64,000 nucleotides of DNA from an uncultured Chloroflexia bacterium (lineage in GTDB: Bacteria; Chloroflexota; Limnocylindria; QHBO01), in the NCBI GenBank assembly GCA_963825525.1, contig CAWGTN010000001.1, positions 192,001-256,000 of the forward strand. Direction: 5' to 3'. A program made the position numbers and the translations under genes. Below, in pieces: positions 3 to 14,728 of this stretch (position 1 is its first letter; each line of letters opens with the position of its first letter). The notes beneath the pieces were generated by a model. The model made no database searches and was not told the DNA's origin. It worked only from the letters and a program-made list of their open reading frames with translations.

Positions 3-1514
3 TACGCCGAGATCAAGCAGCGGCTGGAGTCCGAAGGGCACCGGTTCGAGTCCGAGACCGATACCGAGGTCCTCGCCCACCTCATCGAGTCGAAGTACAC
101 CGGCGACCTGGTCGAGGCCGTCCGTCACGCGCTGAATGACGTGCGTGGCGCGTACGCCATCGGCGTCATGCATACGGACCACCCGGATCGCATCGTCGGC
201 GCCCGCATGAACGTGCCACTCATCGTCGGGCTGGGGGTCGACGAGGGGTTCCTGGCCAGCGACGTGCCGGCCATCCTCGAGCACACGAAGAACGTGATCA
301 TCCTCCATGAGGGTGACATCGCCGATGTGACCGCGTCGGGCACCAGGATCCTGGGCCTCGACGGCGCGGAGGTTCAGCGCGACACGACCGAGATCCACTG
401 GACCATCGACGCCGCCGAGAAGGGCGGATTCGCGCACTTCACGCTCAAGGAGATCTACGAGCAGCCGCACGCCATCCAGGAGTGCCTGCGCGGCCGGGTT
501 GATGGCGTCGGCAACATCTCGCTGTCCGAGCTCACCCCGATCGACGATCGGCTCAAGTCGATCGAGCGCGTCTACGTCGTGGGATGCGGGACGGCCAGCT
601 ATGCGGCGCACGTGGCCGCCTATCTCATCCAGGATTGGGTCGGGATTCCGGCCACCATGCAGGTGGGCTCGGAGATGCGCTACAGCCCGCCGCCGCTCGA
701 CAGCAGGACGCTGGTCATCGGCGTCAGCCAGTCAGGCGAGACGGCCGACACCCTGGCGCCGCTGAGGCTGGCGCAGGAGCGTGGCGCGCTGGTGGTCGTC
801 GTGACGAACGTGGTCGGGAGCGCGATCACGCGCCAGGCCGATGCGGTCTGCTACCTGCAGGCCGGACCGGAGGTTGCCGTGGCGAGCACGAAGGCGTTCG
901 TGACCCAGGTCCTCGTGCTCCAGATGCTCGCGCTGCACCTGGCCGGGCTCAGGGGCACGATGAGCGACAACCAGCTCCGAACCCTCGGCCGCTCGCTGCG
1001 CAGCCTGCCGCGCCTTGCCGCCGAGACCCTGAAGCTCGGTCCGCAGGTCAAGAAGCTCGCCCAACGGTTCGCCCACGTGCGCGACTTCATCTTCATCGGG
1101 CGCGGGGTGGGCTACCCGATCGCCATGGAAGGCGCATTGAAGCTCAAGGAGCTCAGCTACGTGCATGCGGAGGGCTACGCCGCCGGAGAGCTGAAGCACG
1201 GCCCGATTGCGCTGCTGGATCCGGAAACTCCGCTGCTGGCGATCGCCACCGCGGGCGCCACGTACGAGAAGGTGGCCAGCAACGTGGCCGAGGCCCGGGC
1301 ACGGTCGGCGCCGGTGATCGCCATCGCGACCGTGGGCGATGACCAGATCGATCGCTACGCCGACGACGTCCTCTACGTCCCCGAGGTCCCCGAGCCGATC
1401 AGCCCGGTCATTGCCGTCCTGCCGCTCCAGCTGCTTGCCTACGAGGTCGCAGTGGCGCGGGGGACGGACGTGGATCAGCCGCGCAACCTGGCCAAGTCCG
1501 TCACCGTCGAATAG
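3..1514 (+). CDS. glmS: Glutamine--fructose-6-phosphate transaminase (5' truncated by window edge)
   Basis: Frame open from position 3 (FESETDTEVLAHLIE); SIS motifs SQSGETADT, VASTKAF, EGALKLKE and C-terminal DQPRNLAKSVTVE. Confidence 0.98.
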   Translation, partial: YAEIKQRLESEGHRFESETDTEVLAHLIESKYTGDLVEAVRHALNDVRGAYAIGVMHTDHPDRIVGARMNVPLIVGLGVDEGFLASDVPAILEHTKNVIILHEGDIADVTASGTRILGLDGAEVQRDTTEIHWTIDAAEKGGFAHFTLKEIYEQPHAIQECLRGRVDGVGNISLSELTPIDDRLKSIERVYVVGCGTASYAAHVAAYLIQDWVGIPATMQVGSEMRYSPPPLDSRTLVIGVSQSGETADTLAPLRLAQERGALVVVVTNVVGSAITRQADAVCYLQAGPEVAVASTKAFVTQVLVLQMLALHLAGLRGTMSDNQLRTLGRSLRSLPRLAAETLKLGPQVKKLAQRFAHVRDFIFIGRGVGYPIAMEGALKLKELSYVHAEGYAAGELKHGPIALLDPETPLLAIATAGATYEKVASNVAEARARSAPVIAIATVGDDQIDRYADDVLYVPEVPEPISPVIAVLPLQLLAYEVAVARGTDVDQPRNLAKSVTVE

Positions 1515-1529
1515 CGCGACGTCCGCCCG

Positions 1530-1907
1530 ATGAGCCGCCACGAGATCGGCATCGACCTGATCGACATCCAGCGGATCGATCATGTCCTGCGGCGCTTCCC
1601 CGATCGGTTTCGCCTCCGTGTGCTCACCGAGCACGAGCAGCGCTACTGCGGTCGCCGCACCGAGCGGATTGCCGGCCGCTGGGCGGCCAAGGAAGCGATC
1701 AGCAAGGTCCTCGGACTGGGCGTTCGGGGTGTCGGGTGGCGGGAGATCGAGATCCTGCCGAACCGGGCCGGCGCGCCCCAGGTCCTGCTCCATGCTCGCG
1801 CCGCTCGCCGCGCGGAGTTCATGGAGCTCGATGACGTGACCGTCTCCATCTCGCACGAGCGAGAAATGGCCGTCGCGGTCGCCGTCGCGCATCGGCGGCA
1901 CGACTGA
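1530..1907 (+). CDS. acpS: Holo-[acyl-carrier-protein] synthase
   Basis: IGIDLIDI, AGRWAAKEAISKVLG, VSISHE motifs; 125 aa. Confidence 0.95.
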   Translation: MSRHEIGIDLIDIQRIDHVLRRFPDRFRLRVLTEHEQRYCGRRTERIAGRWAAKEAISKVLGLGVRGVGWREIEILPNRAGAPQVLLHARAARRAEFMELDDVTVSISHEREMAVAVAVAHRRHD

Positions 1908-1915
1908 GCAATGCC

Positions 1916-2821
1916 GTGAGCGGACCGTCTGCACGCGGCCTGACGCAGAAGTGGGTCGCGGCACACCTCCCCCAGCGCCCGCCTCGCGCCCACAAGGGTG
2001 AATTCGGCAGGCTGTTGGTGGTGGCAGGCTCCACCGAGTACCCGGGCGCGGCAATGCTCACCGCACTCGGCGCCATGCGCGCCGGCGTGGGAGTCGTGCG
2101 CGTGGCCGCCGCGGAGTCGGTCGCGGATCGCCTTGCGGGCGTCGTGCCCGAGCTGACCTGGATGGTTCTCGACGAGGAGGCCCCCGGGCTCATCGCACCC
2201 AGCGGCTGGCGGCGGGTGACGAACGAGGTGGCGGATCACGACGCCGTCGTCATCGGTCCGGGACTCGGAAGCCAGCCGGCCACCCAGCGGCGGACGCGGA
2301 ATCTCATCGGGGGGCTGACCGTTCCGGGCGTGGTGGACGCCGACGGGCTGAACGCGCTGGCCGCCGGTGGCAACTGGTGGACCGGCCTCGGGGCGAGCCT
2401 GGTGCTCACCCCGCATCCGGGCGAGTTCGCCCGACTCACGAACGCCGAGGCGCCGAGCAGCGCCGACGACGATGCGCGCCTCGTGGCGGCTCGGGATGCG
2501 GCGCTACGATGGCAGCAGGTCGTGGTGCTCAAGGGAGCGAACACGGTCGTGGCAGATCCCGAGGGCGAGGTCCTGCGGTCCGGCGTCACGGCACCCGCGC
2601 TGGCCACGGCCGGAACGGGCGATCTCCTGGCCGGCATCATCGGAGCATTCCTGGCCGCGGGGCTCAGCCCGAGGGACGCGGCGGGCTGTGGCGTGGCCGT
2701 CCATGGCGCGGCCGGGCTGCTGGCCGAGGACCGGATCGGGCGCGCCGGGGTCATTGCCCGCGACGTGGCCGCGCTCCTCCCGGAGGCCATTGAGCAGCTC
2801 CGCGGTGGCCGTCCCCGGTGA
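1916..2821 (+). CDS. nnrD: ADP-dependent NAD(P)H-hydrate dehydratase (stand-alone, no epimerase domain)
   Basis: HKGEFGRLLVVAGS..YPGA, IGPGLG, VVDADGLN, LTPHPGEFARL, LKGANTVV, LATAGTGDLLAG. Confidence 0.93.
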   Translation: MSGPSARGLTQKWVAAHLPQRPPRAHKGEFGRLLVVAGSTEYPGAAMLTALGAMRAGVGVVRVAAAESVADRLAGVVPELTWMVLDEEAPGLIAPSGWRRVTNEVADHDAVVIGPGLGSQPATQRRTRNLIGGLTVPGVVDADGLNALAAGGNWWTGLGASLVLTPHPGEFARLTNAEAPSSADDDARLVAARDAALRWQQVVVLKGANTVVADPEGEVLRSGVTAPALATAGTGDLLAGIIGAFLAAGLSPRDAAGCGVAVHGAAGLLAEDRIGRAGVIARDVAALLPEAIEQLRGGRPR

Positions 2822-3948
2822 CGGTTGCCCGGAGCCCGCATCGGGCGTGGATCGAGGTGGACCACGACGCGCTGCGGTCGAACCTTGCGCGAGTCCGCCT
2901 GCTCGCCCCCGGCTCGGAGATCATCGCGGTCGTCAAGGCGAATGCGTACGGACACGGGGCGGTGGCGGTGGCTCGCACGCTCGTCGGCGCCGGGGCGGAG
3001 CGCCTGGCAGTCGCCACGGTGGGGGAGGCCATCGAGTTGCGCTCAGCGTCGCTCACGGCGCCGATCCTGGTCCTGTGGGCACCCGGCGAGGAGGAGGCCG
3101 ATGCCGTGGCGCAGCACGATCTCGAGCCGATGGTCGATGACGAGCGGTCGATCGCGGCGGTTGAGGCCGCGGCAACCAGGCGGAAGGTGCGAGTTGGAGT
3201 GCATCTGAAGGTGGACACCGGGCTGGGACGCCAGGGCTCCCCGCACGAGGAAGCCGTCACCCTGGCGACGCGAATCGCGAGGAGTCGGCACCTGCGCCTG
3301 GCCGGTACGATGAGCCATCTCGCGGTGCCCGGCGAGGATGACGCATACACCGAGGTCCAGGCTCTGCGACTGTCTCGCGTGCTTGACGCGATGCGGTCGG
3401 CCGGGATCGACCCAGGGCTCGTCCACCTGAACGCAACCGGCGGACTGCTGTCCGGGCCCGTCGCGTTTGCCGACGCGGTGCGACCGGGCCTCTCGCTGTA
3501 CGGCATGCGACCCGCGTGGGCCGCCGATCCACCGGGTGGCCTGACGCCGGCGCTGAGCCTGAAGGCACGAGCGCGCCGAATTTTTGACCTGGATGCCGGC
3601 GAGGCGCTCGGATACGGCCTCCGTTTCCGGACGGCGCGGCGAACGCGAATCGCGACCCTCGGCATCGGCTACGGCGACGGGTGGCCCAGGGTCCACGCCA
3701 ACAACGGCGGCGTCCTCGTTCACGGGCGGCGCGCGCCGATCGTAGGCGCTGTCAGCATGGATGGCCTGACCGTGGATATCGGCGAAATCGATGGTGTAGG
3801 CTTCGCCGACGAATTTGTCCTGATCGGAGAGCAGGACGGCGCGCGGATCACTGCCGACGACGTTGCCACGGAGCGGCGCACCATCAACTACGAGGTGACG
3901 ACCGCACTGCGCGAACGTCTTCCGCGGCTCCATCTCGGAGTCGACTGA
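2818..3948 (+). CDS. alr: Alanine racemase
   Basis: PLP-lysine motif AVVKANAYGHG, HLKVDTGLGRQG, VRPGLSLYG, IGYGDG, VGAVSMD, TINYEV. Confidence 0.97.
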   Translation: MTVARSPHRAWIEVDHDALRSNLARVRLLAPGSEIIAVVKANAYGHGAVAVARTLVGAGAERLAVATVGEAIELRSASLTAPILVLWAPGEEEADAVAQHDLEPMVDDERSIAAVEAAATRRKVRVGVHLKVDTGLGRQGSPHEEAVTLATRIARSRHLRLAGTMSHLAVPGEDDAYTEVQALRLSRVLDAMRSAGIDPGLVHLNATGGLLSGPVAFADAVRPGLSLYGMRPAWAADPPGGLTPALSLKARARRIFDLDAGEALGYGLRFRTARRTRIATLGIGYGDGWPRVHANNGGVLVHGRRAPIVGAVSMDGLTVDIGEIDGVGFADEFVLIGEQDGARITADDVATERRTINYEVTTALRERLPRLHLGVD

Positions 3949-3969
3949 CCCGCCCGCCGCCGACACGAG

Positions 3970-3975
3970 TATCGT
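3970..3975 (+). promoter_or_regulatory. Putative -10 element (TATCGT) for a leaderless or near-leaderless macro-domain operon transcript
   Basis: TANNNT hexamer 8 nt before ATG 3984 in a 35-nt intergenic gap; no strong SD. Confidence 0.4.
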
Positions 3976-3983
3976 AGGCAGCC

Positions 3984-4511
3984 ATGGGATCACCGATCGA
4001 GATCGACGTCTGGCAGGGGGAGATCGCTGACCTCGAGGTCGACGCCCTCATCGTTCCGGCCAACGAGTCGTTCTTCATGACCGCCGGGGCCGCCGCCTCG
4101 GTCAAGCGTCATGGCGGCGACGAGATCGAGCGGGATGCGGTCGGCCAGGGACCCGCCGCCGCGGGCACCGCCATCGCCACCCACGCCGGCACACTCGCCG
4201 CCGCTTACGTCATTCACGCCGTCGGCGTCGGCCACGAGCGCCGTGCCGACCGTGATCAGCTCGCCGCCGCGCTGCGGGCAGCACTCGGCTTCTCGGTGCC
4301 GCTGCAGCTGCGACGCATTGCCACGGCCCTGGTCGGCACCGAGCACGGCGCATTCACCGCTCCGGATGCCGCCGAAATCCTCCTTGCCGAGATCGCGGCG
4401 GCGGAGGCGGCCGGCAGTCCGGCGGAATCCATCGTGGTGGCCACCGGCAGCGCGGTCGAGACGCACGCGGTGCTCGACGCTCTCTCGGCGCGACGAGCAC
4501 GGGCCCGATGA
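3984..4511 (+). CDS. Macro domain (ADP-ribose binding) protein, divergent
   Basis: IDVWQGEIADLEVDALIVPAN and LAAAYVIHAVG match the macro fold; glycine-rich loops are degenerate. Confidence 0.85.
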   Translation: MGSPIEIDVWQGEIADLEVDALIVPANESFFMTAGAAASVKRHGGDEIERDAVGQGPAAAGTAIATHAGTLAAAYVIHAVGVGHERRADRDQLAAALRAALGFSVPLQLRRIATALVGTEHGAFTAPDAAEILLAEIAAAEAAGSPAESIVVATGSAVETHAVLDALSARRARAR

Positions 4512-4768
4512 GCGGGGACCCGGCCCGCCGCCTGGCTGAGGAGCTGGGGCGCCGCGGCCTGACGGTCCCGGCCCGCCTGCTGCTCGATGCTCATCGGCCG
4601 CTGGCGCCGCTCCTGGCAGACCTCGGTGCGGCCGTTTCGCCGCTGATCAACCTGGGTCGATCGCAGGCGCTCCTGCCCGAGGACCGCCTGCTCGACGATC
4701 CCGACGCCGTGGAGCGTGTCATCAGCGAGCTGGACCGTATCGAGGAGCGACGTGCCGGATCCCGCTGA
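4508..4768 (+). CDS. Small hypothetical protein (86 aa)
   Basis: ATGA overlap with macro gene stop; GC3-rich codons; helical RLLLDAHRPLAPLLADLG segment. Confidence 0.7.
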   Translation: MSGDPARRLAEELGRRGLTVPARLLLDAHRPLAPLLADLGAAVSPLINLGRSQALLPEDRLLDDPDAVERVISELDRIEERRAGSR

Positions 4769-5600
4769 GCTGCTTGGCGGGCTCGTCCGTTTCGTCGGTG
4801 AGTTCCTGGGGGCATCGTCGCTCCGATTCGAGGTCGGCACGACGCTGGTCCTGCTCGGCATCGTGCTGGTGCTGCTTCAGCTTGTCGCCCGGCCGGTGAG
4901 CCGTTGGGTGACGTCCGACGCTGCCGGTCTTGCCGGGGTGAGCCGTGCCATGGCCCTGGCTGCGGAATCCGGAACCGATGCCGTCGTGTCCCTTGGCGGA
5001 GGAGGCATCACGCGCGCGACGGATGCATTCGCACGGCTCCAGACGCTGGCCGGGCTGCCGATGCTGGGCCACGTGGCCCGTGCCGCGGCCCGCAGCGGAG
5101 TCCCGCTCCGGATCCTGACCAACGATCCGATCGCCGGCCTCCTGGCCGCGGCGACCGTCGACGCAGCCCACGAGGCGACGGCCACGTCCGAACGCCATGG
5201 CAGGACCCGGGTCGTCATGGTGGGGGAGGGGCGTCCGACGATCGCGGGACTCGCCATGACGGCTCGCGCGCGCCCGGCCGCGGCATTCGCGTTCGGCAGC
5301 CTGCGCGAGGAGTCGCTGCTCCATCTCGACGGGCTGAGGAGCGGTGCGGGCACCTTGACGAGCGCCAGTGCTGAGCCTGCCCAGGCGTCGTCGCTGTGGA
5401 TCGGCGGCGGGGCGTCGCTCATCGGGCCCGAGCTCTTTCAGGCCGGCGCCGACCTGCGATCGAGCGTCGACGAGCGCACGATGGTGCTCGCGGCGAACCG
5501 GCTCATCGGCCTCGCGTTCGCGGCCATCGTGGTGGGTACGATCCTGGCCCTGACCGGGGTCCTCGATCTCGGCTCCCTGATCCGGACCGCGAACGGGTGA
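4752..5600 (+). CDS. Membrane-anchored protein, DUF6754-like (N- and C-terminal TM helices, central alpha/beta domain)
   Basis: GTG 4752 preceded by GAGGAG; [20 protein letters not shown]; AAESGTDAVVSLGGGG; LIGPELFQAGADL; C-terminal TM. Family name is from recollection, not a search. Confidence 0.7.
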   Translation: MPDPAELLGGLVRFVGEFLGASSLRFEVGTTLVLLGIVLVLLQLVARPVSRWVTSDAAGLAGVSRAMALAAESGTDAVVSLGGGGITRATDAFARLQTLAGLPMLGHVARAAARSGVPLRILTNDPIAGLLAAATVDAAHEATATSERHGRTRVVMVGEGRPTIAGLAMTARARPAAAFAFGSLREESLLHLDGLRSGAGTLTSASAEPAQASSLWIGGGASLIGPELFQAGADLRSSVDERTMVLAANRLIGLAFAAIVVGTILALTGVLDLGSLIRTANG

Positions 5601-6214
5601 GGCGACCGACCATCACGGCGCTGGTCGTCGTCATCGGCGTCCTGCTGCTCGTCGACCTCCTGGTTGTCAACACCGCCCTGGCGGACGTCGCCGGCGTCGT
5701 GATCGACGCCACCATCCTGGTTGCCGCGGGCGCGGCCCTGGCCGGAGTGGCATCGCTGGCCGTCCGCCGGCTCGGGGATCTGTGGCGGCGTCGCGGTGAT
5801 CCGGTCGGGGCGGTGCTCGTGCTGGTGGGGATCGGCGCCATGCTGATCGCCGGGTTGCGCCCGGGCTCCGCTGGCGTGTCGGATCCGGCCGTCCAGTGGC
5901 TCATCGCGGCGCTGCTGGTTCCTCTCGGGGCAACGCTCTTCGGCGTCCTGTTCCTCTCGACCATCGCGGCGGCTCGCCGCTCGGTGGCCGGTGGAAGCCG
6001 CGAGGCGCTGGTGATCGTCGGAGCGGCCGTGGTCGGCGCGGTGCTCCTGCTGCCGCTGTCGGGAGCTCCCGGAACGTGGCTGGGGGACGCGAGCAGGTCG
6101 GTGATCGATGGAGCGGTCGGCGCCGTCTTCCGCGGCCTGCTCATCGGCACCGGCCTGCTGGTTGCGGTGTACGCGGCACGCACGCTGTTCGGGATCGGCG
6201 CGAGCGATGAGTGA
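5597..6214 (+). CDS. Integral membrane protein (~6 TM), unknown function
   Basis: GTGA overlap with upstream stop; about six long hydrophobic segments; C-terminal GAVFRGLLIGTGLLVAVYAARTLFG. Confidence 0.8.
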   Translation: MRRPTITALVVVIGVLLLVDLLVVNTALADVAGVVIDATILVAAGAALAGVASLAVRRLGDLWRRRGDPVGAVLVLVGIGAMLIAGLRPGSAGVSDPAVQWLIAALLVPLGATLFGVLFLSTIAAARRSVAGGSREALVIVGAAVVGAVLLLPLSGAPGTWLGDASRSVIDGAVGAVFRGLLIGTGLLVAVYAARTLFGIGASDE

Positions 6215-7046
6215 TCGACTGCAGCACCGCGCCGTGATGCCGGGGCTTCTCCTGCTTCTCCTGAGCGCCGCATGGCTGGCTCCCGACGTGTCGGGGCTGC
6301 GCATGGACGCAGGCGATTCGCCGGCTGCCGCGGGATTCACGACCGCACTCGACGGACTCGAGCCGGACCCGCTGGTGCTCATCGGGTTCGATCCGGACGT
6401 CGGCACGTATGCCGAGATCCGACCGACCGTGCGGGCAGTCATGGCGGACCTCCTTGATCGCGGAGCCCGACTCGCCTTCGTCTCGGTGACGGTCGAGGGT
6501 CGTGCCCTCGCGAGTGCCGAGCTGGTGCGCCTCGGGCGGGCCGAGGTGGATGCCACCAGGATCCTGGACCTTGGGTTCGTAACGGGTGCCGAGGCTGCCC
6601 TCGTCGACCTCACCCGAGATCTTCGGGCCGAGGACGGCATCGGCGGCCGAGCGTTCGCTCGCGAGGCGGCCGACGGGATCGCCGCGTTCGACGCCATCGT
6701 GGTCGTGGGAGGCAATGACCTCGGACCCCGATCGTGGGTCGAGCAGGTGGCCCCGCGGGTGGCGTCCATCCCGCTGCTTGCCGTGACTCCCACCGTGCTC
6801 CTCCCCGAGGTTCAGCCCTATCTGGCGAGCGGGCAGCTGAGCGGGTTGATCGGAACGCTGCGGGACGGCGCCTCGTACCGATCGTCCATCGACGTCGGCA
6901 ACCTTGGCCGGTTCCTCGAGACCCGAGAGCCGAAGGTGCTCCCGGTCCTCATCGGGATCGTGGTGGCCGTCCTGCTGCTAGTCCATGCCCTGGCGCGACG
7001 CCTGCGCCCGGCGGTGCGGGCCAGCCACGAGCGCGGCTCATCGTGA
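6207..7046 (+). CDS. Membrane-anchored protein with a probable extracytoplasmic Rossmann-like domain, unknown function
   Basis: ATG 6207 overlaps the upstream gene; N-terminal hydrophobic/signal stretch, VLIGFDPDVGTYAEIRP, PYLASGQLSGLIG, C-terminal TM. Confidence 0.8.
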   Translation: MSDRLQHRAVMPGLLLLLLSAAWLAPDVSGLRMDAGDSPAAAGFTTALDGLEPDPLVLIGFDPDVGTYAEIRPTVRAVMADLLDRGARLAFVSVTVEGRALASAELVRLGRAEVDATRILDLGFVTGAEAALVDLTRDLRAEDGIGGRAFAREAADGIAAFDAIVVVGGNDLGPRSWVEQVAPRVASIPLLAVTPTVLLPEVQPYLASGQLSGLIGTLRDGASYRSSIDVGNLGRFLETREPKVLPVLIGIVVAVLLLVHALARRLRPAVRASHERGSS

Positions 7047-7687
7047 ACGGCATGTTCGGCGCCGATCCGGCCGGTACCGCGGCCACGTGGGTGGCTGCCG
7101 CGGCGACCGTCGTGGTCCTCGCCTCCCTGCTCGGTGAGCGACGGATGTTCGGCTGGTCGCAGCACCTGTTGGCCGGGCTGGCGACCGGCTTCCTGGCGCT
7201 CGTTGCGCTGCGCGAGGTGATCGCGCCACGCGTCCTCCAGCCGCTGGCCTCCGACCCTGCTGGCCGCCCCGACCTGTGGCTGGGCATTGTGCTGGTGGCG
7301 GTCGTGGCCATCGCACCCTGGCTGCCCCGACGGGTCGCGGTGATTCCGGCGTCGATCGCCGTCGGGTCCCTGGCGGCGTTCGCCCTCGGCGGCGCGGTGA
7401 TCGGCACGCTCCTGCCGCAGCTGGACGCGTCGATCGTGCGGTCCGGCCCCACGCCCGGCGCGACGGTCCTCGGCGTGCTCGGTGCGCTGACGACGGGCCT
7501 CGTGCTGCTCGGGTTCGTGCACGGCGTGCCACGAGGTCGAGTCCTGGCGACCGCCGCGGGGACGGGCCGTTGGCTGCTCCTGGGGGGGCTTGGCACCTGG
7601 CTCGGCTACCTCCTCGTATCGCGCCTCGTCCTCCTCACCGATCGGGTGGGCTTCCTCCTGGGCGACTGGCTGGGGCTCGTGCCATGA
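7043..7687 (+). CDS. Integral membrane protein (~6-7 TM), unknown function
   Basis: GTGA overlap; hydrophobic helices; QHLLAGLATGF and GRWLLLGGLGTWLGYLLVSRL. Confidence 0.8.
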   Translation: MNGMFGADPAGTAATWVAAAATVVVLASLLGERRMFGWSQHLLAGLATGFLALVALREVIAPRVLQPLASDPAGRPDLWLGIVLVAVVAIAPWLPRRVAVIPASIAVGSLAAFALGGAVIGTLLPQLDASIVRSGPTPGATVLGVLGALTTGLVLLGFVHGVPRGRVLATAAGTGRWLLLGGLGTWLGYLLVSRLVLLTDRVGFLLGDWLGLVP

Positions 7688-9321
7688 GCGGCCTCCGTCC
7701 GCGGGCCGAAATGGCCCTGCTGTTGGACATCGGATCGGCATGGGCCAAGGCCGGGGTGATCGGGCAGGCCGGGGGCCGATGGCGGCTGGTGGCGCACGTC
7801 GCCCAACCCACGGCATGGGGATCGGCGGCGCTCCGCGATGCACTGGTGGACCAGCTGACACGGGTTGCCGATCCGCGATTGGTGGGCCACGTCGACGCGC
7901 TCCTGGCCGATGCGCGTCGCATCGAGTGCCACACCGCACGTCCGCCGCGCCTGGCGATCATCGCGGTCTCTCGCGAGCTTTCAGGTGGAACAGCCCGCCG
8001 TGCCGCGGAAGCCGCCGGCTGGCAGGTGGCCGAGTTCGTGACATTGGACGACGGACGCGATCTGGCCGACCGACTCGCGACGCTCCAGGCGGCCGAGGTG
8101 GACACCTGGCTCCTGGCGGGCGGATTCGAGGGCACCCGCAGCCCGCGCGCGCTCGAGGCGGCGGCACTGGTTGCCGCGGCCAGGCGTCCCGGCAACGGCC
8201 GCGTCGTCTGGGCCGGCTCTGCCGAGCTCGGTCCCGAGGTCGCCGACCTGTTCGAGCCCGATGCCACGGCATTCGTCGCCAATCCGCGCCCCGACGCCCG
8301 CCGTGAAGACCCCGGGCCGCTGAGAGATCACCTCGTCGCCCTGCTGCGCGATGTCGTCACCGGCACGGACGAGACGCATCTCGCATCGGCCACGTTCGGT
8401 CGGGCGGTGGGGGCGCTCTCGTCGATCACCGGCCTCCGCATCCTGGGCGTTGACCTTGGGGCCGCGTCCGCGGTCAGGGTGCTGGCCGAACCAGACGGCA
8501 GCGTCGCAGGTCGCGTCAGGGCTGGAGGGGGCCTGGCGGGAACCATCCTCGTTCCCGGCGCCGCGGCCCGCGTCTCTCGGCTGGCCGGTGACGCCGGTGA
8601 CGATGCGACCGTGGCGGACCTGCTGCAGACCATCCGAGCGCGCCCGGCCACGCTGCCACAGACCGCGGAGGAGCTGTCAGCCATGCAGACTGCCGCGCGC
8701 GTGCAGCTGGCGGCCATGATGGACGAGGGGCTTGACGCTCCCCTCGACCTCGTCGTCGGCGCGGGCCGCGTGCTGGCCGCTGCGCCCCGACCCTCGCAGG
8801 CGGCGCGGATGCTGCTCGACGGCGTTCGCCCGATGGGGGTGACGCAGCTGGCGGTCGATGCCGGCGCGGTCCTTGGCCCGCTCGGATCGCTCCCCGACGA
8901 CCAGGTCCGGGAGGGCGTCTCACTGCTCGGCGAGGACGTGCTCTTGCCGCTCGGGACGTCCGTGGTGTGCCGTGGCGGCGAGCCGGGCCGGCCCGCCATG
9001 CGGGTCACCATGCACCGGGCGGGCTGGCCATCAGTTGGACCGATCGAGGTGCGGGTGGGCCAGATCCAGGTCATGCCGCTGCCGCGCGGTCAACAGGCCG
9101 AGATCACCGTGGAGCCGCTGCATGGCGTGAGTCTCGGTACCGCGCGACGCTCACCGCGCATCAGCGCCACCGTGTCGGGCGGAGCGGTGGGACTCATTCT
9201 GGACGCACGCGGAGTTCCGATCGGCCTGCCGCGCCGGGGCGATGACCGTCGAGAGGTCCTGGCCGGCTGGCGCGAGGTGCTGGAGCGCGATCCCGGACAC
9301 GGCTCGGAGCGTGTCGCATGA
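7684..9321 (+). CDS. Glutamate mutase L (GlmL/MutL)-like ASKHA-fold ATPase
   Basis: ATGA overlap; phosphate-1-like LLLDIGSAWAKA, LLAGGFEG, FVANPRP, phosphate-2-like ILGVDLGAAS; C-terminal GGAVGLILDARGVPIGLP; 545 aa. Confidence 0.75.
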   Translation: MSGLRPRAEMALLLDIGSAWAKAGVIGQAGGRWRLVAHVAQPTAWGSAALRDALVDQLTRVADPRLVGHVDALLADARRIECHTARPPRLAIIAVSRELSGGTARRAAEAAGWQVAEFVTLDDGRDLADRLATLQAAEVDTWLLAGGFEGTRSPRALEAAALVAAARRPGNGRVVWAGSAELGPEVADLFEPDATAFVANPRPDARREDPGPLRDHLVALLRDVVTGTDETHLASATFGRAVGALSSITGLRILGVDLGAASAVRVLAEPDGSVAGRVRAGGGLAGTILVPGAAARVSRLAGDAGDDATVADLLQTIRARPATLPQTAEELSAMQTAARVQLAAMMDEGLDAPLDLVVGAGRVLAAAPRPSQAARMLLDGVRPMGVTQLAVDAGAVLGPLGSLPDDQVREGVSLLGEDVLLPLGTSVVCRGGEPGRPAMRVTMHRAGWPSVGPIEVRVGQIQVMPLPRGQQAEITVEPLHGVSLGTARRSPRISATVSGGAVGLILDARGVPIGLPRRGDDRREVLAGWREVLERDPGHGSERVA

Positions 9322-10352
9322 GCGTCATCCACCGCATCCGGCTGCCGGCCGGCGCCGCACCGATGGTCGAGCCGGGCCATCGCGTCGAGCCCGCCGAGGT
9401 GCTCGCAACGCGGCGAACGCCGCGCGGCGGCCTGGCGCTGCCGATTGCCGGTCCACTGCGCCGTTCGGCGTCGTCCGCCGCCGCCTGCATCGTGGTGCGT
9501 CCCGGGGCGTCGCTCGAGGCCGGCGCGATCCTGGCGGACGATGGTCGTGGCCGGCAGGTGAAGGTCACGGAGGCGTGCATTCTGCTCGGATACGATCGCG
9601 ACGACGGTACCGCGCTGGTCGCACCGCTCAGCGGCAGTGAGCCGGTCGTGGGGCACGTGCGCGGCGAGGTGGTGTCCCTGGAGCCGGATGCGGTCGAGCT
9701 GCGGGTCGACGGCGCGCTGGTCACCGGAGTCGGTGGGTCCGGCAATGCGGTGCACGGCGAGCTCCGCGTAGCCGTCCACGATCCGGGCGACGAGCTGCGG
9801 GCCGGCGCGATCGACATCGGCGCCACGGGACGCATCCTGGTCGGCGGCTCGCGGGCATCGGCGGAGACACTCACCCGGGCACGAGCCATGGGGGTCGCGG
9901 GCATCGTGCTCGGCGGCATCCTCGACAAAGAGCTGCGCGACTTCGAGACGACGCAGCGGCGCAGGAGGGAGATCGGAGGCGTGCGGGGCGATTTCGCCGT
10001 GCTGCTCCTCGAAGGCTACGGCAAGGTCGGACTGGATCCGGGGCTCTTCGACTGGTTCAGGCGGCACGACGGGCACCTGGCAAGCCTGTTCGGCGCCGAT
10101 GCAAGGCTGTACGTGTACGACGCCGATCCACCGCCGATGCGCCGGATGCTCGCGCGTCCGGGCGACCGGGTGCTCGCCCATCGCCGGCCGCATGCCGGCC
10201 AGACCGGGGAGCTGATTCGCATCCTGGACGAGCTCCATGCATTCCCATCCGGGGTGGTGGCGCGAGGGGCCCTGGTCAGGTTCGACGATGGCCAGTCGGC
10301 GATGATCCCGCTGGCCAATCTCGAGGCCACGGAACCCCGCCCGGGCGCGTGA
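9318..10352 (+). CDS. Hypothetical soluble protein with barrel-sandwich-hybrid repeats and C-terminal SH3/KOW-like domain
   Basis: ATGA overlap; VEPGHRVEPAEVLA and VRPGASLEAGAILA half-motifs; VAGIVLGGI, LLLEGYGK; PGDRVLAHRRPHAGQTG...IPLANLE. Confidence 0.75.
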   Translation: MSVIHRIRLPAGAAPMVEPGHRVEPAEVLATRRTPRGGLALPIAGPLRRSASSAAACIVVRPGASLEAGAILADDGRGRQVKVTEACILLGYDRDDGTALVAPLSGSEPVVGHVRGEVVSLEPDAVELRVDGALVTGVGGSGNAVHGELRVAVHDPGDELRAGAIDIGATGRILVGGSRASAETLTRARAMGVAGIVLGGILDKELRDFETTQRRRREIGGVRGDFAVLLLEGYGKVGLDPGLFDWFRRHDGHLASLFGADARLYVYDADPPPMRRMLARPGDRVLAHRRPHAGQTGELIRILDELHAFPSGVVARGALVRFDDGQSAMIPLANLEATEPRPGA

Positions 10353-10364
10353 GCGCTGCGTTCC

Positions 10365-10370
10365 TATACT
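10365..10370 (+). promoter_or_regulatory. -10 element TATACT, leaderless tsaE promoter
   Basis: TATACT 7 nt before ATG 10378; no SD. Confidence 0.6.
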
Positions 10371-10377
10371 TCCCCGA

Positions 10378-10875
10378 ATGGAGCAGTCGACCGTGCGGCC
10401 CTCGGCCGCGGGCTCCCGGGTGAGCACCGGGGCTGACGAAACGCAGGAGATCGGACGCCGCATCGGGGAGCTGGCGCCGGCCTCGACCGTGCTGGCCCTC
10501 ATCGGGGCGCTGGGTGCCGGCAAGACCCAGCTGGCCAAGGGCGTGGCGCGCGGTCTGGAGATCACGGGGGTCGTCAATAGCCCGACGTTCATCCTCATGA
10601 ACGAGCATGTCGGCCGGCTGCGGATGTATCACATCGACGCGTATCGGCTCGCCGAGCCCGAGGAGGCGGTGGCGGCGGGGCTGCTCGACGACCGTCAGGC
10701 GGACGGCATCACGGTGATCGAGTGGGCCGATCGTCTCGACGGATGGCTGCCGAACGAGCGCCTCGAGATTCGCTTGCAGGCGCGACCGGGCGAGCCCGAG
10801 CACCGCGAGCTGCACTGGCGCGCCATCGGCGAGGCACATGCCCGCCTGGCGACGGAATCCCTCGGCGCGCCATGA
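10378..10875 (+). CDS. tsaE: tRNA threonylcarbamoyladenosine biosynthesis ATPase
   Basis: GALGAGKT Walker A, NSPTFILMNE, YHIDAYRL, VIEWA. Confidence 0.96.
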   Translation: MEQSTVRPSAAGSRVSTGADETQEIGRRIGELAPASTVLALIGALGAGKTQLAKGVARGLEITGVVNSPTFILMNEHVGRLRMYHIDAYRLAEPEEAVAAGLLDDRQADGITVIEWADRLDGWLPNERLEIRLQARPGEPEHRELHWRAIGEAHARLATESLGAP

Positions 10876-11498
10876 TCATCGCCTTCGACGGTGCGTCAAC
10901 CGACCTCTCGATCGCGCTTGCCGAGCCTGGCGGCGCTCCGATTGCCGATGTCGCATGGAGCAGCGCACACCGGCAGTCGGCCGAGCTCCTGCCGCGGCTC
11001 CTCGCACTGCTCGATGACGCGGAGCGAACGCTGCCGGAGACGACGGCGATCGCCGTGGGCGTCGGCCCGGGATCGTTCACCGGCCTCCGCGTGGCCGTCG
11101 CGCTGGCCAAGGGCCTCGCAAGCGGGCTTCGCGTGCCGATCTTCGGCGTGCCGAGCCTCGTGGCCTGGCTCGCCGCGGATTCCTCTGCGTCAGCCGCCAT
11201 CGCTCGTGCCGGCGCGAGGGACGCGTACGTGCTGGCACGTGGGGAAGAGGCCCCGCTCATCACCGACGCGGCCGACCTCGGGACGTGGCAGGGGGTCGTC
11301 GCACCGGCCGACGTTGCGGGGGCGTTCGGGCTGGTCCACGCTCGCTCGCCGCGAGCCGCGGCCGCGATCGCAGCACAGGCCGCGACCCGGATGCGGCAGG
11401 ACCCTGCCGGTGATGACCTTGGGGCCCTGGAGCCGCTCTACCTGCGCGGCCCGCGCGGGGTCGCGGTCGAGAGCCAGGAGCGCGTTCGATGGCTCTGA
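10872..11498 (+). CDS. tsaB: tRNA threonylcarbamoyladenosine biosynthesis protein TsaB
   Basis: ATG 10872; IAVGVGPGSFTGLRVAVALAKGL, LEPLYLR. Confidence 0.93.
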   Translation: MIIAFDGASTDLSIALAEPGGAPIADVAWSSAHRQSAELLPRLLALLDDAERTLPETTAIAVGVGPGSFTGLRVAVALAKGLASGLRVPIFGVPSLVAWLAADSSASAAIARAGARDAYVLARGEEAPLITDAADLGTWQGVVAPADVAGAFGLVHARSPRAAAAIAAQAATRMRQDPAGDDLGALEPLYLRGPRGVAVESQERVRWL

Positions 11499-12001
11499 CC
11501 GCGCGCGTGGTGGTCGACCCGATGCGCATGGACGACGTCGCGGCGGTCCATGAGATCGAGCGGCTGAGCTTCAGGACGCCGTGGCCGGCCTACGCATTCG
11601 AGCAGGAGCTGCGTGCCAATCGGCTGGCCCGCTACATCGTGGCGCGAGCGGGTGATCGGATCGTGGGGTTTGCCGGCATCTGGATGATGGTCGACGAGGC
11701 CCATGTGACGACGTTCGGAGTCCATCCCGATTGGCGACGCCAGGCGATCGGGCGTCAGCTGCTGTTGAACCTCGTCGAGCTGGCGGACAGCATCGGGGCG
11801 CGCCGCATGACCCTCGAGGTCCGAGAGTCAAATGTCGCGGCCCAGGCGCTCTACCAACGCTTCGGGTTCGAGGTCGTGGGCCGTCGGAAGGCGTACTACA
11901 GCGACGATGGCGAGGATGCACTGGTCATGACCACGCCGGCTCTCGGCGAGGCCGGCATGCGGGCCACGGTCGCCATCGAACGCGAGCGCCTGGCCGGATG
12001 A
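11489..12001 (+). CDS. rimI: Ribosomal protein S18 alanine N-acetyltransferase
   Basis: IERLSFRTPW, GVHPDWRRQAIG, TLEVRESN..AQALY..FGF...GRRKAYYSD..EDALVM; context. Confidence 0.93.
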   Translation: MALTARVVVDPMRMDDVAAVHEIERLSFRTPWPAYAFEQELRANRLARYIVARAGDRIVGFAGIWMMVDEAHVTTFGVHPDWRRQAIGRQLLLNLVELADSIGARRMTLEVRESNVAAQALYQRFGFEVVGRRKAYYSDDGEDALVMTTPALGEAGMRATVAIERERLAG

Positions 12002-13041
12002 GCGCGCCCCGGATCCTGGCCATCGAGTCATCCTGTGACGAGACCGGCGTGGCGGTGGTGGTCGGTGGTCGGCGGATCGAGGCCAACCAGGTAGCGACGC
12101 AGGTGGCGCTCCACGCCCAGACCGGGGGGATCGTGCCCGAGGTCGCCGCCCGTCAGCAGCTGCGCTGGATCATTCCCACCCTCGATGCGGCACTGGCGGA
12201 GGCCGATGCGGACTGGGGCCAGATCGACGCGGTGGCCGTGACCTTCGGGCCGGGCCTCATCGGATCCCTGCTGGTCGGCGTCAACGTCGCCAAGGCGCTG
12301 GCCATCACCCACGACCTGCCCCTCATCGGGGTCAACCACATCGAGGGCCACATCTATGCCAACTGGCTCAGCGACGCCGCCGCCGGCTCGCCGCTCCCCG
12401 ATGAGCCCGAGTTTCCGCTCCTGTGCCTGGTGGTCAGCGGCGGGCATACCCAGCTCGTGCTGATGCGTGACCACGGGCGCTACACACTGCTGGGTCAGAC
12501 GGTGGACGATGCCGCGGGCGAGGCCTTCGACAAGGTCGGGCGCCTGCTCGATCTGCCGTACCCGGGCGGGCCGGCCATCAGCGCCGCGGCCGAGGGAGCC
12601 ACCGCCGTCACGCGCTTCCCCCGTGCGCGGACGGCCGGTCCGTACGACTTCAGCTTCTCGGGATTGAAGACCGCGGTGCTGCGCGAGGTGGAGGGGTACC
12701 GGGAGCGCGGTGAGCCGATCCCGGTTGACGGCATCGCCGCCGCGTTCGAGGAGGCAGTGGTCGACGCACTGGCCACGAAGACGCTCGCCGCCGCGCGCGA
12801 TCACGGCGTGGCGACCGTCGCAATGGGCGGTGGAGTCGCCGCGAACCGGGCGCTGCGGGCGACCCTGGACGAGCGCCTGCGCTCGGAGGGGCTGTCACTC
12901 CGAGTTCCGCGCCCGGCGTGGTGCACGGACAATGGCGCCATGATCGGCGCCGCGGCCGGCTTCCGATACGCCGCCGGCGAACGTTCGGACGCCGCGCTCG
13001 AGGCCGTCCCGAACCTTGCCCTTGAATGGACCCAGGGGTGA
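11998..13041 (+). CDS. tsaD: tRNA N6-adenosine threonylcarbamoyltransferase
   Basis: ILAIESSCDETG, GGIVPEVAAR, VNHIEGH, VSGGHT, DDAAGEAFDKV, FSFSGLKT, CTDNGAMI. Confidence 0.97.
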   Translation: MSAPRILAIESSCDETGVAVVVGGRRIEANQVATQVALHAQTGGIVPEVAARQQLRWIIPTLDAALAEADADWGQIDAVAVTFGPGLIGSLLVGVNVAKALAITHDLPLIGVNHIEGHIYANWLSDAAAGSPLPDEPEFPLLCLVVSGGHTQLVLMRDHGRYTLLGQTVDDAAGEAFDKVGRLLDLPYPGGPAISAAAEGATAVTRFPRARTAGPYDFSFSGLKTAVLREVEGYRERGEPIPVDGIAAAFEEAVVDALATKTLAAARDHGVATVAMGGGVAANRALRATLDERLRSEGLSLRVPRPAWCTDNGAMIGAAAGFRYAAGERSDAALEAVPNLALEWTQG

Positions 13042-13907
13042 GCGACCCGCTTGCCCCGGACCGTCTCGTTCCGCCAACGCCCGGTCAGCTCCGGCGCCTC
13101 ATGGGTGCGGAGCGACTCAGGCCACGAAAGAGCCTGAGCCAGAACTTCCTCACCGACCCGGAAGCACTCGACGCGATCGTCGCGGCCGCGGAACTGGAGC
13201 CTGGCGACAACGTGGTCGAGATCGGTCCCGGCCTCGGAGTGCTCACCCGTCGTCTGCTGGCGGCGGGAGCATCGGTCCTTGCCGTCGAGGTGGATCCGCG
13301 CCTGGCCGAGTACCTGCGACGCGAGCTGTACGCGGTCGAACGATTCGAGCTCATCGAGGCCGATGCGCTGTCGCTTCACGCCCGCGAGATGTTCCCCGGC
13401 CAGCCATTCAAGGTGGTGGCCAACATCCCGTACCACATCACGAGTCCACTGCTGCATGCCGTGCTGGAAGGCGACCGGCCGCCGGAGCTGGTCGTGATCC
13501 TGGTCCAGCTGGAGGTCGCCGAGCGGGTTGCCGCTCCACCGGGCCGCATGAGCTACCTGTCGGTCTTCGCGCAGAACGTGGCAACGGCCGAGGTCGTGGC
13601 CCGCGTCCCGGCATCGGCGTTCGAACCCGCCCCGGATGTCGACTCCGCCGTGCTGCGCCTTCGACGCCGCGCCGACCCCGCAGTGCCGGTGGGGCCGGGC
13701 CGCGAGCCGTTCTATCGCGTGGTGCAGGCCGGCTTTCGCCAGCGCCGCAAGCAGGTGCACAACGGGCTGTCGCGTGAGCTGCCGTTCGACCGCGAAGTGA
13801 CCGACGCGGCGCTGGCGGCATGTGGCGTGGACCAGGAGCGCCGTCCGCAGACGCTGACCGTCGACGAGTGGGCGTGCCTGGCAGACCGATTGGGGCCGAT
13901 GGCGTGA
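13038..13907 (+). CDS. rsmA: 16S rRNA m6,2A dimethyltransferase
   Basis: KSLSQNFL, VVEIGPGLGVLT, VVANIPYHITSP, GFRQRRK; start 13038 (GTGA overlap) or 13026. Confidence 0.96.
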   Translation: MSDPLAPDRLVPPTPGQLRRLMGAERLRPRKSLSQNFLTDPEALDAIVAAAELEPGDNVVEIGPGLGVLTRRLLAAGASVLAVEVDPRLAEYLRRELYAVERFELIEADALSLHAREMFPGQPFKVVANIPYHITSPLLHAVLEGDRPPELVVILVQLEVAERVAAPPGRMSYLSVFAQNVATAEVVARVPASAFEPAPDVDSAVLRLRRRADPAVPVGPGREPFYRVVQAGFRQRRKQVHNGLSRELPFDREVTDAALAACGVDQERRPQTLTVDEWACLADRLGPMA

Positions 13908-14728
13908 ACGCCGTCCTCAGATTGGCGGCACCGGCGAAGCTCAACCTGCGACTGAAGGTCACCGGCCGTCGATCGGACGGCTACCACCTGCTCGAGAGCA
14001 CCTTCGTGCTGCTCGAGCTGTCCGACACGCTCGAGGTCCGACCGGGCGCGGGGACCCTCGTCATCGACGGCCCCCTGTCCTCGGGCATGCCGGCGGGAGC
14101 CGCGAACCTCGCGTGGCGCGGACTCAGCGAGGCGCTCGGGCACGGCAGCGCAGCCGTGAGCCTGAACCTACACAAGCGCATTCCGGCGGCAGCGGGATTG
14201 GGTGGTGGCTCGTCGGATGCGGCGGCTGCATGGCGGCTCGGCCGGGCGTGGAAGGGCATGCCGGACGCTCCCGGACCGCAGGAGCTCGCGTCGCTGGCAG
14301 CCATCGGCGCCGACGTCCCATTTTTCGCGGCCGCCACGCCGGCCGCCACGGTCACCGGCATCGGCGAGACCGTCGAGCCCATCCCACCCAGCGTTCATCA
14401 CGTGGTGCTCGTGCACCCGCCGTTCGGCCTGGCGACGGCCGCCGTCTTCGGTGAGCTGCGGCCGGATGAGTGGGGGAGTCTCGAGAATGATCTGCTGGCG
14501 CCGGCCCGAAGGCTGCGCCCGGAGCTCCATGACCTGTTCGGCCTGATCACCGCGGCCGGCGGGCATCCGCGGCTCACCGGCTCGGGTAGCACGATCTTCA
14601 GCCTGGCGAATGACCGGCTCACGGCAACCGAGCTCGCAGAACGCCTTGGCGACGACGGCCTCCGCGCCACCGTGACCCGGACGCGCCGCGCAGCCGCTAG
14701 CATCGAGCGCATCAATGGAAATGAGTGA
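13904..14728 (+). CDS. ispE: 4-diphosphocytidyl-2-C-methyl-D-erythritol kinase
   Basis: APAKLNLRL..TGRRSDGYH, KRIPAAAGLGGGSSDAA, GADVPFF, LTGSGS. Confidence 0.94.
   Translation: MNAVLRLAAPAKLNLRLKVTGRRSDGYHLLESTFVLLELSDTLEVRPGAGTLVIDGPLSSGMPAGAANLAWRGLSEALGHGSAAVSLNLHKRIPAAAGLGGGSSDAAAAWRLGRAWKGMPDAPGPQELASLAAIGADVPFFAAATPAATVTGIGETVEPIPPSVHHVVLVHPPFGLATAAVFGELRPDEWGSLENDLLAPARRLRPELHDLFGLITAAGGHPRLTGSGSTIFSLANDRLTATELAERLGDDGLRATVTRTRRAAASIERINGNE

Follow-up and report, generated by a model that had tools for sequence, protein, structure and literature searches.

FtsA, PilM-PilN and MreB-RodZ are systems in which an ASKHA-fold protein is held at the membrane, the anchor being an amphipathic tail or a short peptide of a membrane partner. 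The MutL/GlmL family presumably belongs to the ASKHA-fold clan. Its members are described as reactivating chaperones and not as filaments (PMC4682846). A gene related to this family, termed g7, is present in a 64,000 nucleotide (nt) stretch of DNA from an uncultured Chloroflexia bacterium (GenBank assembly GCA_963825525.1, contig CAWGTN010000001.1, positions 192,001–256,000). The whole of this stretch is referred to as the window. The g7 gene is part of a block of eight + strand genes, g1 to g8, which spans positions 3984–10352 of the window and lies between alr and tsaE.

The block and its relatives in other Chloroflexota display three layers: a core gene pair, g7-g8; a membrane module, g2-g6, which is marked by the DUF6754 protein g3; and the macro domain gene g1, which is an extra. 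The block is read here as a modular Chloroflexota system in which a membrane-tethered, ATP-driven g7-g8 unit and a membrane complex would act on the cell envelope. A rough probability of 0.45 is given to this reading, i.e. a little short of even odds. The best-supported statement is a structural one: the g7-g8 unit reaches the membrane by several routes that can stand in for one another. This type of system is previously undescribed and is not in the family libraries, solved structures or literature that were searched. The literature search, which did not cover subscription journals, gave no mention of DUF6754 or PF13941, nor of such a system.

The eight genes are listed below with chain lengths in amino acids (aa). 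The predicted local distance difference test score is abbreviated as pLDDT.

g1, 3984..4511, + strand: macro-domain protein, 175 aa (PF01661, E 4.6e-13), no hydrophobic helix
g2, 4508..4768, + strand: soluble protein, 86 aa, no family, no hydrophobic helix by hydropathy
g3, 4752..5600, + strand: DUF6754 protein, 282 aa (PF20539, E 1.6e-14), N- and C-terminal helices
g4, 5597..6214, + strand: polytopic membrane protein, 205 aa, about six hydrophobic segments by hydropathy, no family
g5, 6207..7046, + strand: double-anchored protein, 279 aa, two hydrophobic helices and a Rossmann-like domain
g6, 7043..7687, + strand: polytopic membrane protein, 214 aa, at least five hydrophobic segments by hydropathy, no family
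g7, 7684..9321, + strand: MutL/GlmL-family ASKHA protein, 545 aa (PF13941, E 1.4e-20), no hydrophobic helix
g8, 9318..10352, + strand: soluble protein, 344 aa, three-domain model (pLDDT 89.4), no hydrophobic helix

The g7-g8 pair

The g7 sequence matches the MutL model PF13941 with 74 bits (cut-off 27) at model positions 2–200 of 450. A cluster homologue from a distant locus, L043, matches the same model with 189.7 bits, and here the match encompasses positions 1–441 of 450. The cluster homologues are longer than the family model and run approximately 130 residues beyond its end. The additional sequence in g7 is a C-terminal domain of about 140 aa that displays a DARGxP motif. The GlmL models of NCBIfam are matched far under their cut-offs (NF040745, 28.4 against 475; TIGR01319, 33.7 against 204), and the best PDB sequence-profile match is to an unrelated protein (E 0.0086). 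At E 0.01 or better MutL is the only Pfam match, with no FtsA, MreB or PilM model. Glycine-rich motifs are conserved at residues 15–18, 177–178 and 257–259, and these are taken to be the ASKHA phosphate-binding motifs. Judged from its sequence, g7 would have ATPase activity.

The model of g8 displays an N-terminal barrel-sandwich hybrid, a swivelling beta/beta/alpha domain and a KOW/SH3-like domain. The N-terminal domain is similar in fold to NqrA (4u9o_A) and RnfC (8ahx_C) at Z 7.7 with about 59–60 residues aligned, and a weak match to RnfC_N (E 0.015, below cut-off) is found in one g8 homologue. The swivelling domain is similar to 5hv1_A (Z 9.5, root-mean-square deviation (rmsd) 2.6, 103 residues aligned), and residues 132–268 give a VIA match to 2wqd_A (Z 10.0, rmsd 2.6, 107 residues aligned). 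Residues 278–340 give a VIA match to 5ohq_A (Z 9.1, rmsd 1.5, 52 residues aligned). A solved protein with the same combination of three domains was not found; a Foldseek search of PDB with the whole model gave no match at E 0.001 or better, and NCBIfam gave none. An alignment of 14 g8 sequences has invariant columns for M, G and V only, and thus displays no invariant His.

A model of the g7-g8 complex has a score of 0.84, and the best of three controls has a score of 0.00. The mark of 0.84 is reached by 116 of 157 solved complexes and by two of 215 mismatched pairs; this calibration is a rough one, since the alignments were self-made. At least 94% of contacts recur between model runs, and the partner pLDDT is at least 87. 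It is unlikely that the score comes from the memory of the model, because neither g7 nor g8 has a solved relative by sequence. In the model g7 is in contact with each of the three domains of g8, most tightly between g7 residues 322–331 and the KOW domain, and the invariant Pro321 of g7, beside these residues, is within the same interface. The modelling supports the binding of g7 to g8.

Models for mutases and aminomutases, PF06368 (Met_asp_mut_E) and PF09043 (Lys-AminoMut_A), have no match above cut-off in the window genome, which is 92% complete, nor in three other genomes (G265, G262 and G254). A fifth genome, G116, has a canonical MutL of 455 aa about 900 bases from a lysine-aminomutase-A-like gene (C1:838203–841524). 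It also has a cluster-type MutL beside membrane genes at 2.28 Mb, so that both subfamilies can be compared in a single genome. The system is not a B12-mutase reactivase. The large group of orphan GlmL proteins is distinct from the true mutase accessory proteins, and therefore annotations as “glutamate mutase L” are misleading here.

An initial annotation of the window, made without database searches, had called g7 GlmL/MutL-like and g8 a barrel-sandwich hybrid protein. The first call agrees with a PF13941 match above the gathering score and the second with the model, which adds the swivelling and KOW/SH3-like domains. The annotation had also noted that the block holds no mutase, and the same is now seen above cut-off for the whole window genome. 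It had named three outcomes that would speak against it, and none of them was found: the genes are found together in other genomes; the GlmL-like gene is not tied to a B12 mutase, of which none was found above cut-off in four of the five genomes, with a separate MutL beside the aminomutase gene in G116; and searches of Pfam, NCBIfam, PADLOC and PDB sequences and two fold searches place none of the proteins in a characterised complex.

Distribution in Chloroflexota

The survey is of 301 Chloroflexota genomes and 104 fetched loci, and agreement by family is given over 30 listed families. The tallies include genomes flagged as unpublished, and no claim depends solely on these. They are G006 in the count of g7 among 41 relatives, G258 and G078 in that of g8, G078 in that of the g7 C-terminal domain, and G180, G078, G258, G206 and G303 in that of SEDS.

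A g7 homologue is found in 28 of 41 relatives, among them 20 of 24 in family f1, seven of seven in f3 and none of seven in f2. Across the phylum, a profile of the g7 C-terminal domain is matched in 175 of 301 genomes and g8 is found in 171. The two are concordant in 27 of the 30 families (f4, f16 and f23 are discordant). DUF6754 is present in 79 of 301 genomes and is all-or-none by family; all nine listed families that have it also have the g7 C-terminal domain. In families without DUF6754, g7 and g8 are adjacent in six of six loci.

The order g2-g3-g4-g5-g6-g7 is kept in ten of ten distant DUF6754 loci (L036–L045) and across the Anaerolineae. In the ten distant loci, hidden Markov model (HMM) matches to g3, g5 and g7 were found in every case; g6 was found by tblastn in nine and by position in the tenth; and g8 is adjacent in five. 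Among 67 Anaerolineae loci longer than 12 kb, g7 is found in 66, a long g5 in 65, g8 in 63, g3 in 59, g6 in 52, g2 in 51 and g4 in 50. Within the window's class, g6 is present in 18 of 20 in f1 and in none of 17 in f3, which parallels DUF6754. A search for related loci gave 80, all of them from Anaerolineae, and the named cultured carriers include Bellilinea caldifistulae and Levilinea saccharolytica. The DUF6754 plus GlmL-like clusters that the initial annotation had mentioned for other Chloroflexi are real.

In L043 (16999–17631), L040 (2438–3007, - strand) and 63 of the 67 Anaerolineae loci, a gene for a protein of about 190–210 aa, and of about 194 aa in the Anaerolineae, is directly 3′ of g8. 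Its product has an acidic N-terminus, one membrane helix and a Thr/Pro-rich stretch. At the C-terminus an LPNTG-like motif precedes a hydrophobic helix and basic residues, an arrangement that looks like a sortase-type sorting signal. The window has no LPNTG-type gene of this kind.

Families f16 and f23 (e.g. G052, G065, G089 and G101) have DUF6754 and the g7 C-terminal domain, with no g8 at E 1e-5 or better. In f23 the match to the C-terminal domain is short (about 114–117 of 139 positions, in open reading frames of 350–513 aa). These families may represent a further variant of the system.

Three proteins with 49–69% identity to window proteins (P0052, P0282 and P0347) are labelled as Thermoleophilaceae, Dormibacteraeota and Thermoanaerobaculia. 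They are probably from mis-binned contigs of metagenome-assembled genomes and are not used as evidence. Look-alikes outside the phylum in the Atlas, g8 in Bacillota and Planctomycetota and g5 in Planctomycetota and Myxococcota, are leads only.

The membrane module

g3 matches PF20539 with 54.1 bits (gathering score 27) at model positions 14–250 of 257. The GTG start at position 4752 agrees with the N-termini of family-level homologues. Over 15 homologues, Lys plus Arg residues total 13 ahead of helix 1 and 59 behind it, and for helix 2 the corresponding totals are 26 and four; the central domain is predicted to be on the cytoplasmic side.

The AlphaFold model of g5 (pLDDT 82.7) displays a six-stranded Rossmann-like alpha/beta domain between the two helices. 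The best fold match is 1kjn_B (Z 10.1, rmsd 3.1, 139 residues aligned), which is generic only, as are the matches to RCK/KTN domains and one periplasmic sugar-binding protein (Z 8.2–9.0). Foldseek with this model gave no PDB match at E 0.001 or better, and a Pfam scan of 12 g5 homologues one by one gave no recurring family. Lys plus Arg counts in the homologues are 23 and 11 around helix 1, and 15 and 45 around helix 2. The Rossmann-like domain is predicted to be outside the cell, and the long homologues described below agree with this in that their N-terminal arm has a zinc ribbon. The two anchored proteins, g3 and g5, thus have opposite predicted topologies.

Homologues of g4 are found in the equivalent position at distant loci (in alignment A9 the L044 row is mis-framed and is to be disregarded), and the position of g6 beside g7 is conserved. 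NCBIfam gave no match for g3, g4 and g5, and for g6 gave only a sub-threshold match to CrcB. The best PDB sequence-profile matches are to unrelated proteins (E 1.3 for g3, 0.27 for g5 and 2 for g6). Comparison by hhalign of g3 with g5 and of g4 with g6 gave a probability of 0.2 each, and therefore neither pair is a detectable duplication.

Links to the membrane in other lineages

Outside the window's class, the g5 homologue is a protein of 527–1480 aa in which an N-terminal zinc ribbon and a long acidic arm precede the membrane helix. Between seven and 46 PxW[LMFV] motifs are found on the arm in eight of ten cases; shuffled sequences have a mean below 0.7 and a maximum of three. The window g5 is a shortened form of this long zinc-ribbon/PxWL protein, and the window version of the system as a whole is a reduced form.

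In two loci that have no DUF6754, L134 and L137, a separate zinc-ribbon/PxWL protein is encoded directly 5′ of g7. Here again the same motifs are found, together with a membrane helix or an amphipathic end. In L036–L039 and L044, g8 is not adjacent and g7 has a chain length of 640–725 aa. Alignment of g7 from four of these loci (L037–L039 and L044) shows a basic-aromatic tail at the C-terminal end, RRGWFGKKK-like, which follows a long linker. The tail is taken to resemble the membrane-targeting ends of FtsA and MinD, and by this analogy it looks like a membrane-targeting sequence.

Three loci (L130, L131 and L132) have a solitary g8. A receiver-domain gene follows it in all three, and L131 and L132 also have a gene for a hybrid response-regulator/histidine-kinase. 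In L130 an L,D-transpeptidase gene is located 5′ of g8.

g2 and the macro domain gene

Searches of Pfam, NCBIfam and PADLOC gave no match for g2. With a purpose-built HMM, g2 is found 5′ of g3 in the DUF6754 loci searched, with the exception of L038, and directly 5′ of g7 in five of five sister-family loci that have no g3-g6. The same HMM did not find it in six other g7-g8 loci. By these matches, g2 is a gene that travels with g7.

The g1 sequence matches PF01661 with 49.6 bits (gathering score 22). The NCBIfam models for ADP-ribose binding and deacetylase proteins are matched below their cut-offs only, and the substrate is undefined because no equivalog cut-off was reached. A macro domain open reading frame adjoins the system in seven of the 104 fetched loci (L011–L014, L042, L046 and L048). 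From this distribution, g1 is a lineage-specific accessory gene outside of the conserved core, i.e. a local add-on with possibly a regulatory role.

Other protein calls of the initial annotation hold as well. The macro domain of g1 is borne out by the PF01661 match. Its two membrane-anchored proteins are g3 and g5, with two hydrophobic helices each; the alpha/beta fold is modelled for g5 and is putative for g3. Its two proteins with about six transmembrane segments are g4, with about six, and g6, with at least five.

Gene order and flanking sequences in the window

The seven start/stop overlaps from g1 to g8 are 4, 17, 4, 8, 4, 4 and 4 bases. The eight overlapping open reading frames and the coordinates of their seven junctions are exactly as the initial annotation had listed them. 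The proposal of an eight-gene unit stands as to the overlaps and the co-occurrence in other genomes. It does not stand as to one conserved unit, as the macro gene is present in seven of 104 loci and the g7-g8 pair is more widely distributed.

alr is at positions 2818–3948, with a gap of 35 bases to g1, and tsaE is at 10378–10875, with a gap of 25 bases from g8. Further upstream of alr are glmS, acpS and an NAD(P)HX dehydratase gene. nnrD and alr overlap by four bases, so genes 5′ of the block are packed as tightly as those within it. The order downstream is tsaE, a 220 aa open reading frame, a GNAT gene, tsaD, rsmA and a GHMP kinase gene (ispE-like). Gaps throughout are small or absent, and the block thus lies within a long co-directional housekeeping array on the + strand (3–3948 and 10378–14728). 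The G+C content is 68–74% across the first 14 kb of the window.

The gaps on both sides of the block have -10-like hexamers only. A putative -10 had been proposed at position 3970, and the sequence there is just TATCGT; a separate promoter had been proposed for tsaE, and the 25-base gap has just TATACT. In a consensus scan of positions 2700–11200 the + strand gave no sigma-70-type promoter, and no terminator was seen, so that neither promoter proposal is upheld. The ends of the transcription unit are undefined, because the upstream genes are equally packed and no promoter or terminator was found.

The 220 aa open reading frame at 10891–11553 (+ strand), between tsaE and the rimI-like GNAT gene, occupies the place expected for tsaB. 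It has no Pfam match at E 0.001 or better, and is either a very divergent TsaB or an open reading frame with a wrong start or frame.

On the same contig, ftsA and ftsZ are at C1:263887–267173, approximately 8–11 kb past the end of the window, and a SEDS gene is at 258210–259274. These three genes are about 56–65 kb from the cluster.

Envelope-related neighbours

Genes related to the cell wall are found near the system and differ by lineage, i.e. alr and glmS in the window, and LCP, L,D-transpeptidase, UDP-GlcNAc 2-epimerase, phosphohexomutase and LPNTG-type genes elsewhere. In genome G076 (locus L038, C5:2140000–2159900) a cluster without g2 is located directly after murG, a CvpA-like gene, murC, murB, ddl, ftsQ, ftsA and ftsZ. 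A role in the envelope is suggested by such neighbours. The initial annotation had taken the position beside alr and glmS as a hint of envelope chemistry; it is a weak hint only, as this position is specific to the window's class. The window genome holds its own FtsA, FtsZ and two MreB genes, and therefore the system would add to the usual machinery and not replace it.

Proposed mechanism and alternative explanations

The core of the proposed system would be a cytoplasmic heterodimer between g7, a nucleotide-binding ASKHA protein with an additional, acquired C-terminal domain, and g8, a three-domain adaptor. In the window's lineage an integral membrane module of four proteins, accompanied by g2, is most likely the docking site of the heterodimer. 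In this module the g3 domain would be on the cytoplasmic side, g4 and g6 would be polytopic, and the Rossmann-like domain of g5 would be outside the cell. In other lineages the equivalent connection may be made by the PxWL motifs on the zinc-ribbon cytoplasmic arm of g5, or by the basic-aromatic tail of g7. Binding and hydrolysis of ATP by g7 would drive a conformational cycle, and the membrane module would relay this cycle to the cell exterior, where it may serve envelope assembly or maintenance.

Several observations weigh against this interpretation. The PF13941 match of g7 spans just the N-terminal 200 model positions. The sister family f3, which is in the same class, displays the order alr-macro-g2-g7-g8-tsaE with no PF20539 match in 15 cases and no g6 in 17, and at least four further families have the g7-g8 pair without DUF6754; the pair can thus work without this membrane module. 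The contact of g7-g8 with the membrane proteins is a putative one, drawn from gene order and gene overlap. In three lineages g8 is apart from g7 and lies beside response-regulator/histidine-kinase genes. The window g5 has no zinc ribbon and no PxWL motif, the window g7 has no tail, and no open reading frame of 100 aa or longer in the window genome has three PxWL-type motifs. The tethering devices of other lineages are therefore not demonstrated for the window copy. The envelope-related neighbours vary between lineages and none is conserved. Co-occurrence with SEDS (PF01098) is non-discriminating, because 269 of 301 genomes have SEDS.

The same tails and arms could belong to a new cytoskeletal or scaffold system, in which g7 is a polymerising actin-like protein, its filaments are tethered to the membrane by PxWL arms or by the tail, in the manner of FtsA or MreB-RodZ, and g8 is a filament cofactor. 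The ASKHA fold presumed for the family would allow this, and so would the presumed likeness to FtsA and MinD of a tail that follows a long linker in the four aligned homologues. A membrane protein with up to 46 PxWL motifs would suit multivalent capture, and the cluster directly follows ftsA-ftsZ in G076. However g7 matches MutL and no FtsA, MreB or PilM model, the window genome already has FtsA and two MreB genes, and in the complex model the contacts with g8 extend over much of g7. The GlmL relatives are also described as chaperones and not as filaments (PMC4682846), and filament formation is considered unlikely. A soluble chaperone or reactivase that serves an enzyme from another locus, in the way that GlmL serves glutamate mutase, with unrelated membrane genes kept by operon inertia, would be in accord with a MutL/GlmL family member and with the g7-g8 pairs that have no g3-g6 in many families. 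It is made quite improbable by the lack of a match above cut-off to glutamate mutase E or lysine aminomutase A in four of five genomes and the separate canonical MutL in the fifth, by the presence of this g7 type in all nine listed DUF6754 families with a gene order that is kept across distant families, and by the g7 tails and the zinc-ribbon/PxWL/anchor neighbours, which point to the membrane even where g3-g6 are absent.

The membrane module could also be a transporter or channel in which g4 and g6 form the pore, g5 is an outward binding domain and g7-g8 gate or energise transport. Two polytopic proteins, a predicted extracytoplasmic alpha/beta domain and a cytoplasmic nucleotide-binding protein would be suitable components, and the generic fold matches of g5 include RCK/KTN domains and a periplasmic sugar-binding protein. 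These matches are generic Rossmann-like with no standout, however, and g4 and g6 match no transporter family. The g7-g8 pair occurs without the module, and no ASKHA-energised transporter is known to us; there is little to recommend this explanation. Finally, g8 may be a switch that is read by two-component regulators and modulated by ADP-ribose turnover through the macro domain, i.e. a signalling or regulatory device. Regulator genes follow the solitary g8 in three of three loci, the g8 middle domain is folded like a phospho-carrier swivel domain, and the macro gene overlaps g2 in the window. The g8 alignment has no invariant His, however, the macro gene is found in just seven of 104 loci, and no regulator genes are near the system in the window or in Anaerolineae, so that a signalling device is a poor prospect.

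The reading that is preferred remains a membrane-tethered, ATP-driven g7-g8 unit that acts with a membrane complex on the envelope. The interpretation given in the initial annotation is in part supported by this, as the conserved cluster holds and the eight-gene unit and the promoters do not. A more far-reaching reading, which is doubtful, is a membrane-tethered ASKHA machine of the Chloroflexota's own, in which a GlmL-derived ATPase is locked to a g8-type adaptor and is recruited by dozens of PxWL motifs or an amphipathic tail to a two-sided transmembrane complex. If this is true, building or division of the unusual Chloroflexota envelope would be the work of a novel class of engine, cytoskeleton-like or Hsp70-like, and the “B12-mutase reactivase” family would have a second, far more widespread job.

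Significance

Members of the Chloroflexota abound in soil, sediment and wastewater. Little is understood of their envelope and cell biology. More than half of the 301 sampled genomes have the g7-g8 pair and a quarter have the full membrane version. Five of the eight proteins are without a family, and two have DUF-level names without literature. The system has parts that can be tested: a predicted heterodimer, a repeated docking-like short motif and two membrane proteins of opposite topology. A bench study is possible, because the cultured B. caldifistulae and L. saccharolytica carry the system.

Comparison with known systems

Anti-phage defence models of PADLOC matched none of the eight proteins at E 0.1 or better. 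g3 is a member of DUF6754 (PF20539), a family with no assigned function whose relatives NCBI calls “DUF6754 domain-containing protein”.

The similarities of g8 are domain by domain. The likeness to NqrA and RnfC, as seen in the fold matches, is between their barrel-sandwich N-domains and the N-terminal domain of g8. No redox cofactor motif is present in g8. The middle domain has the fold of the swivelling phospho-histidine domain of phosphotransferase system (PTS) enzyme I (2wqd_A) and of rifampin phosphotransferase. Unlike the phospho-carrier domain of PTS enzyme I, g8 has no conserved phospho-acceptor His.

FtsA, PilM-PilN and MreB-RodZ may share with the present system the logic by which an ASKHA-fold protein is held at the membrane, if the g7-homologue tails and the PxWL arms are the analogues of their tails and peptides. 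However g7 has no sequence match to these proteins and the genome has its own FtsA and MreB.

The closest described proteins are those of GlmL/MutL (PF13941, NF040745 and TIGR01319). The window g7 is above the PF13941 cut-off, and distant cluster homologues cover the whole model. g7 differs from GlmL/MutL in several respects. No mutase gene was found beside it or in the rest of the genome, about 140 aa form an extra domain at its C-terminal end, g8 is its dedicated partner, and its neighbours encode membrane proteins.

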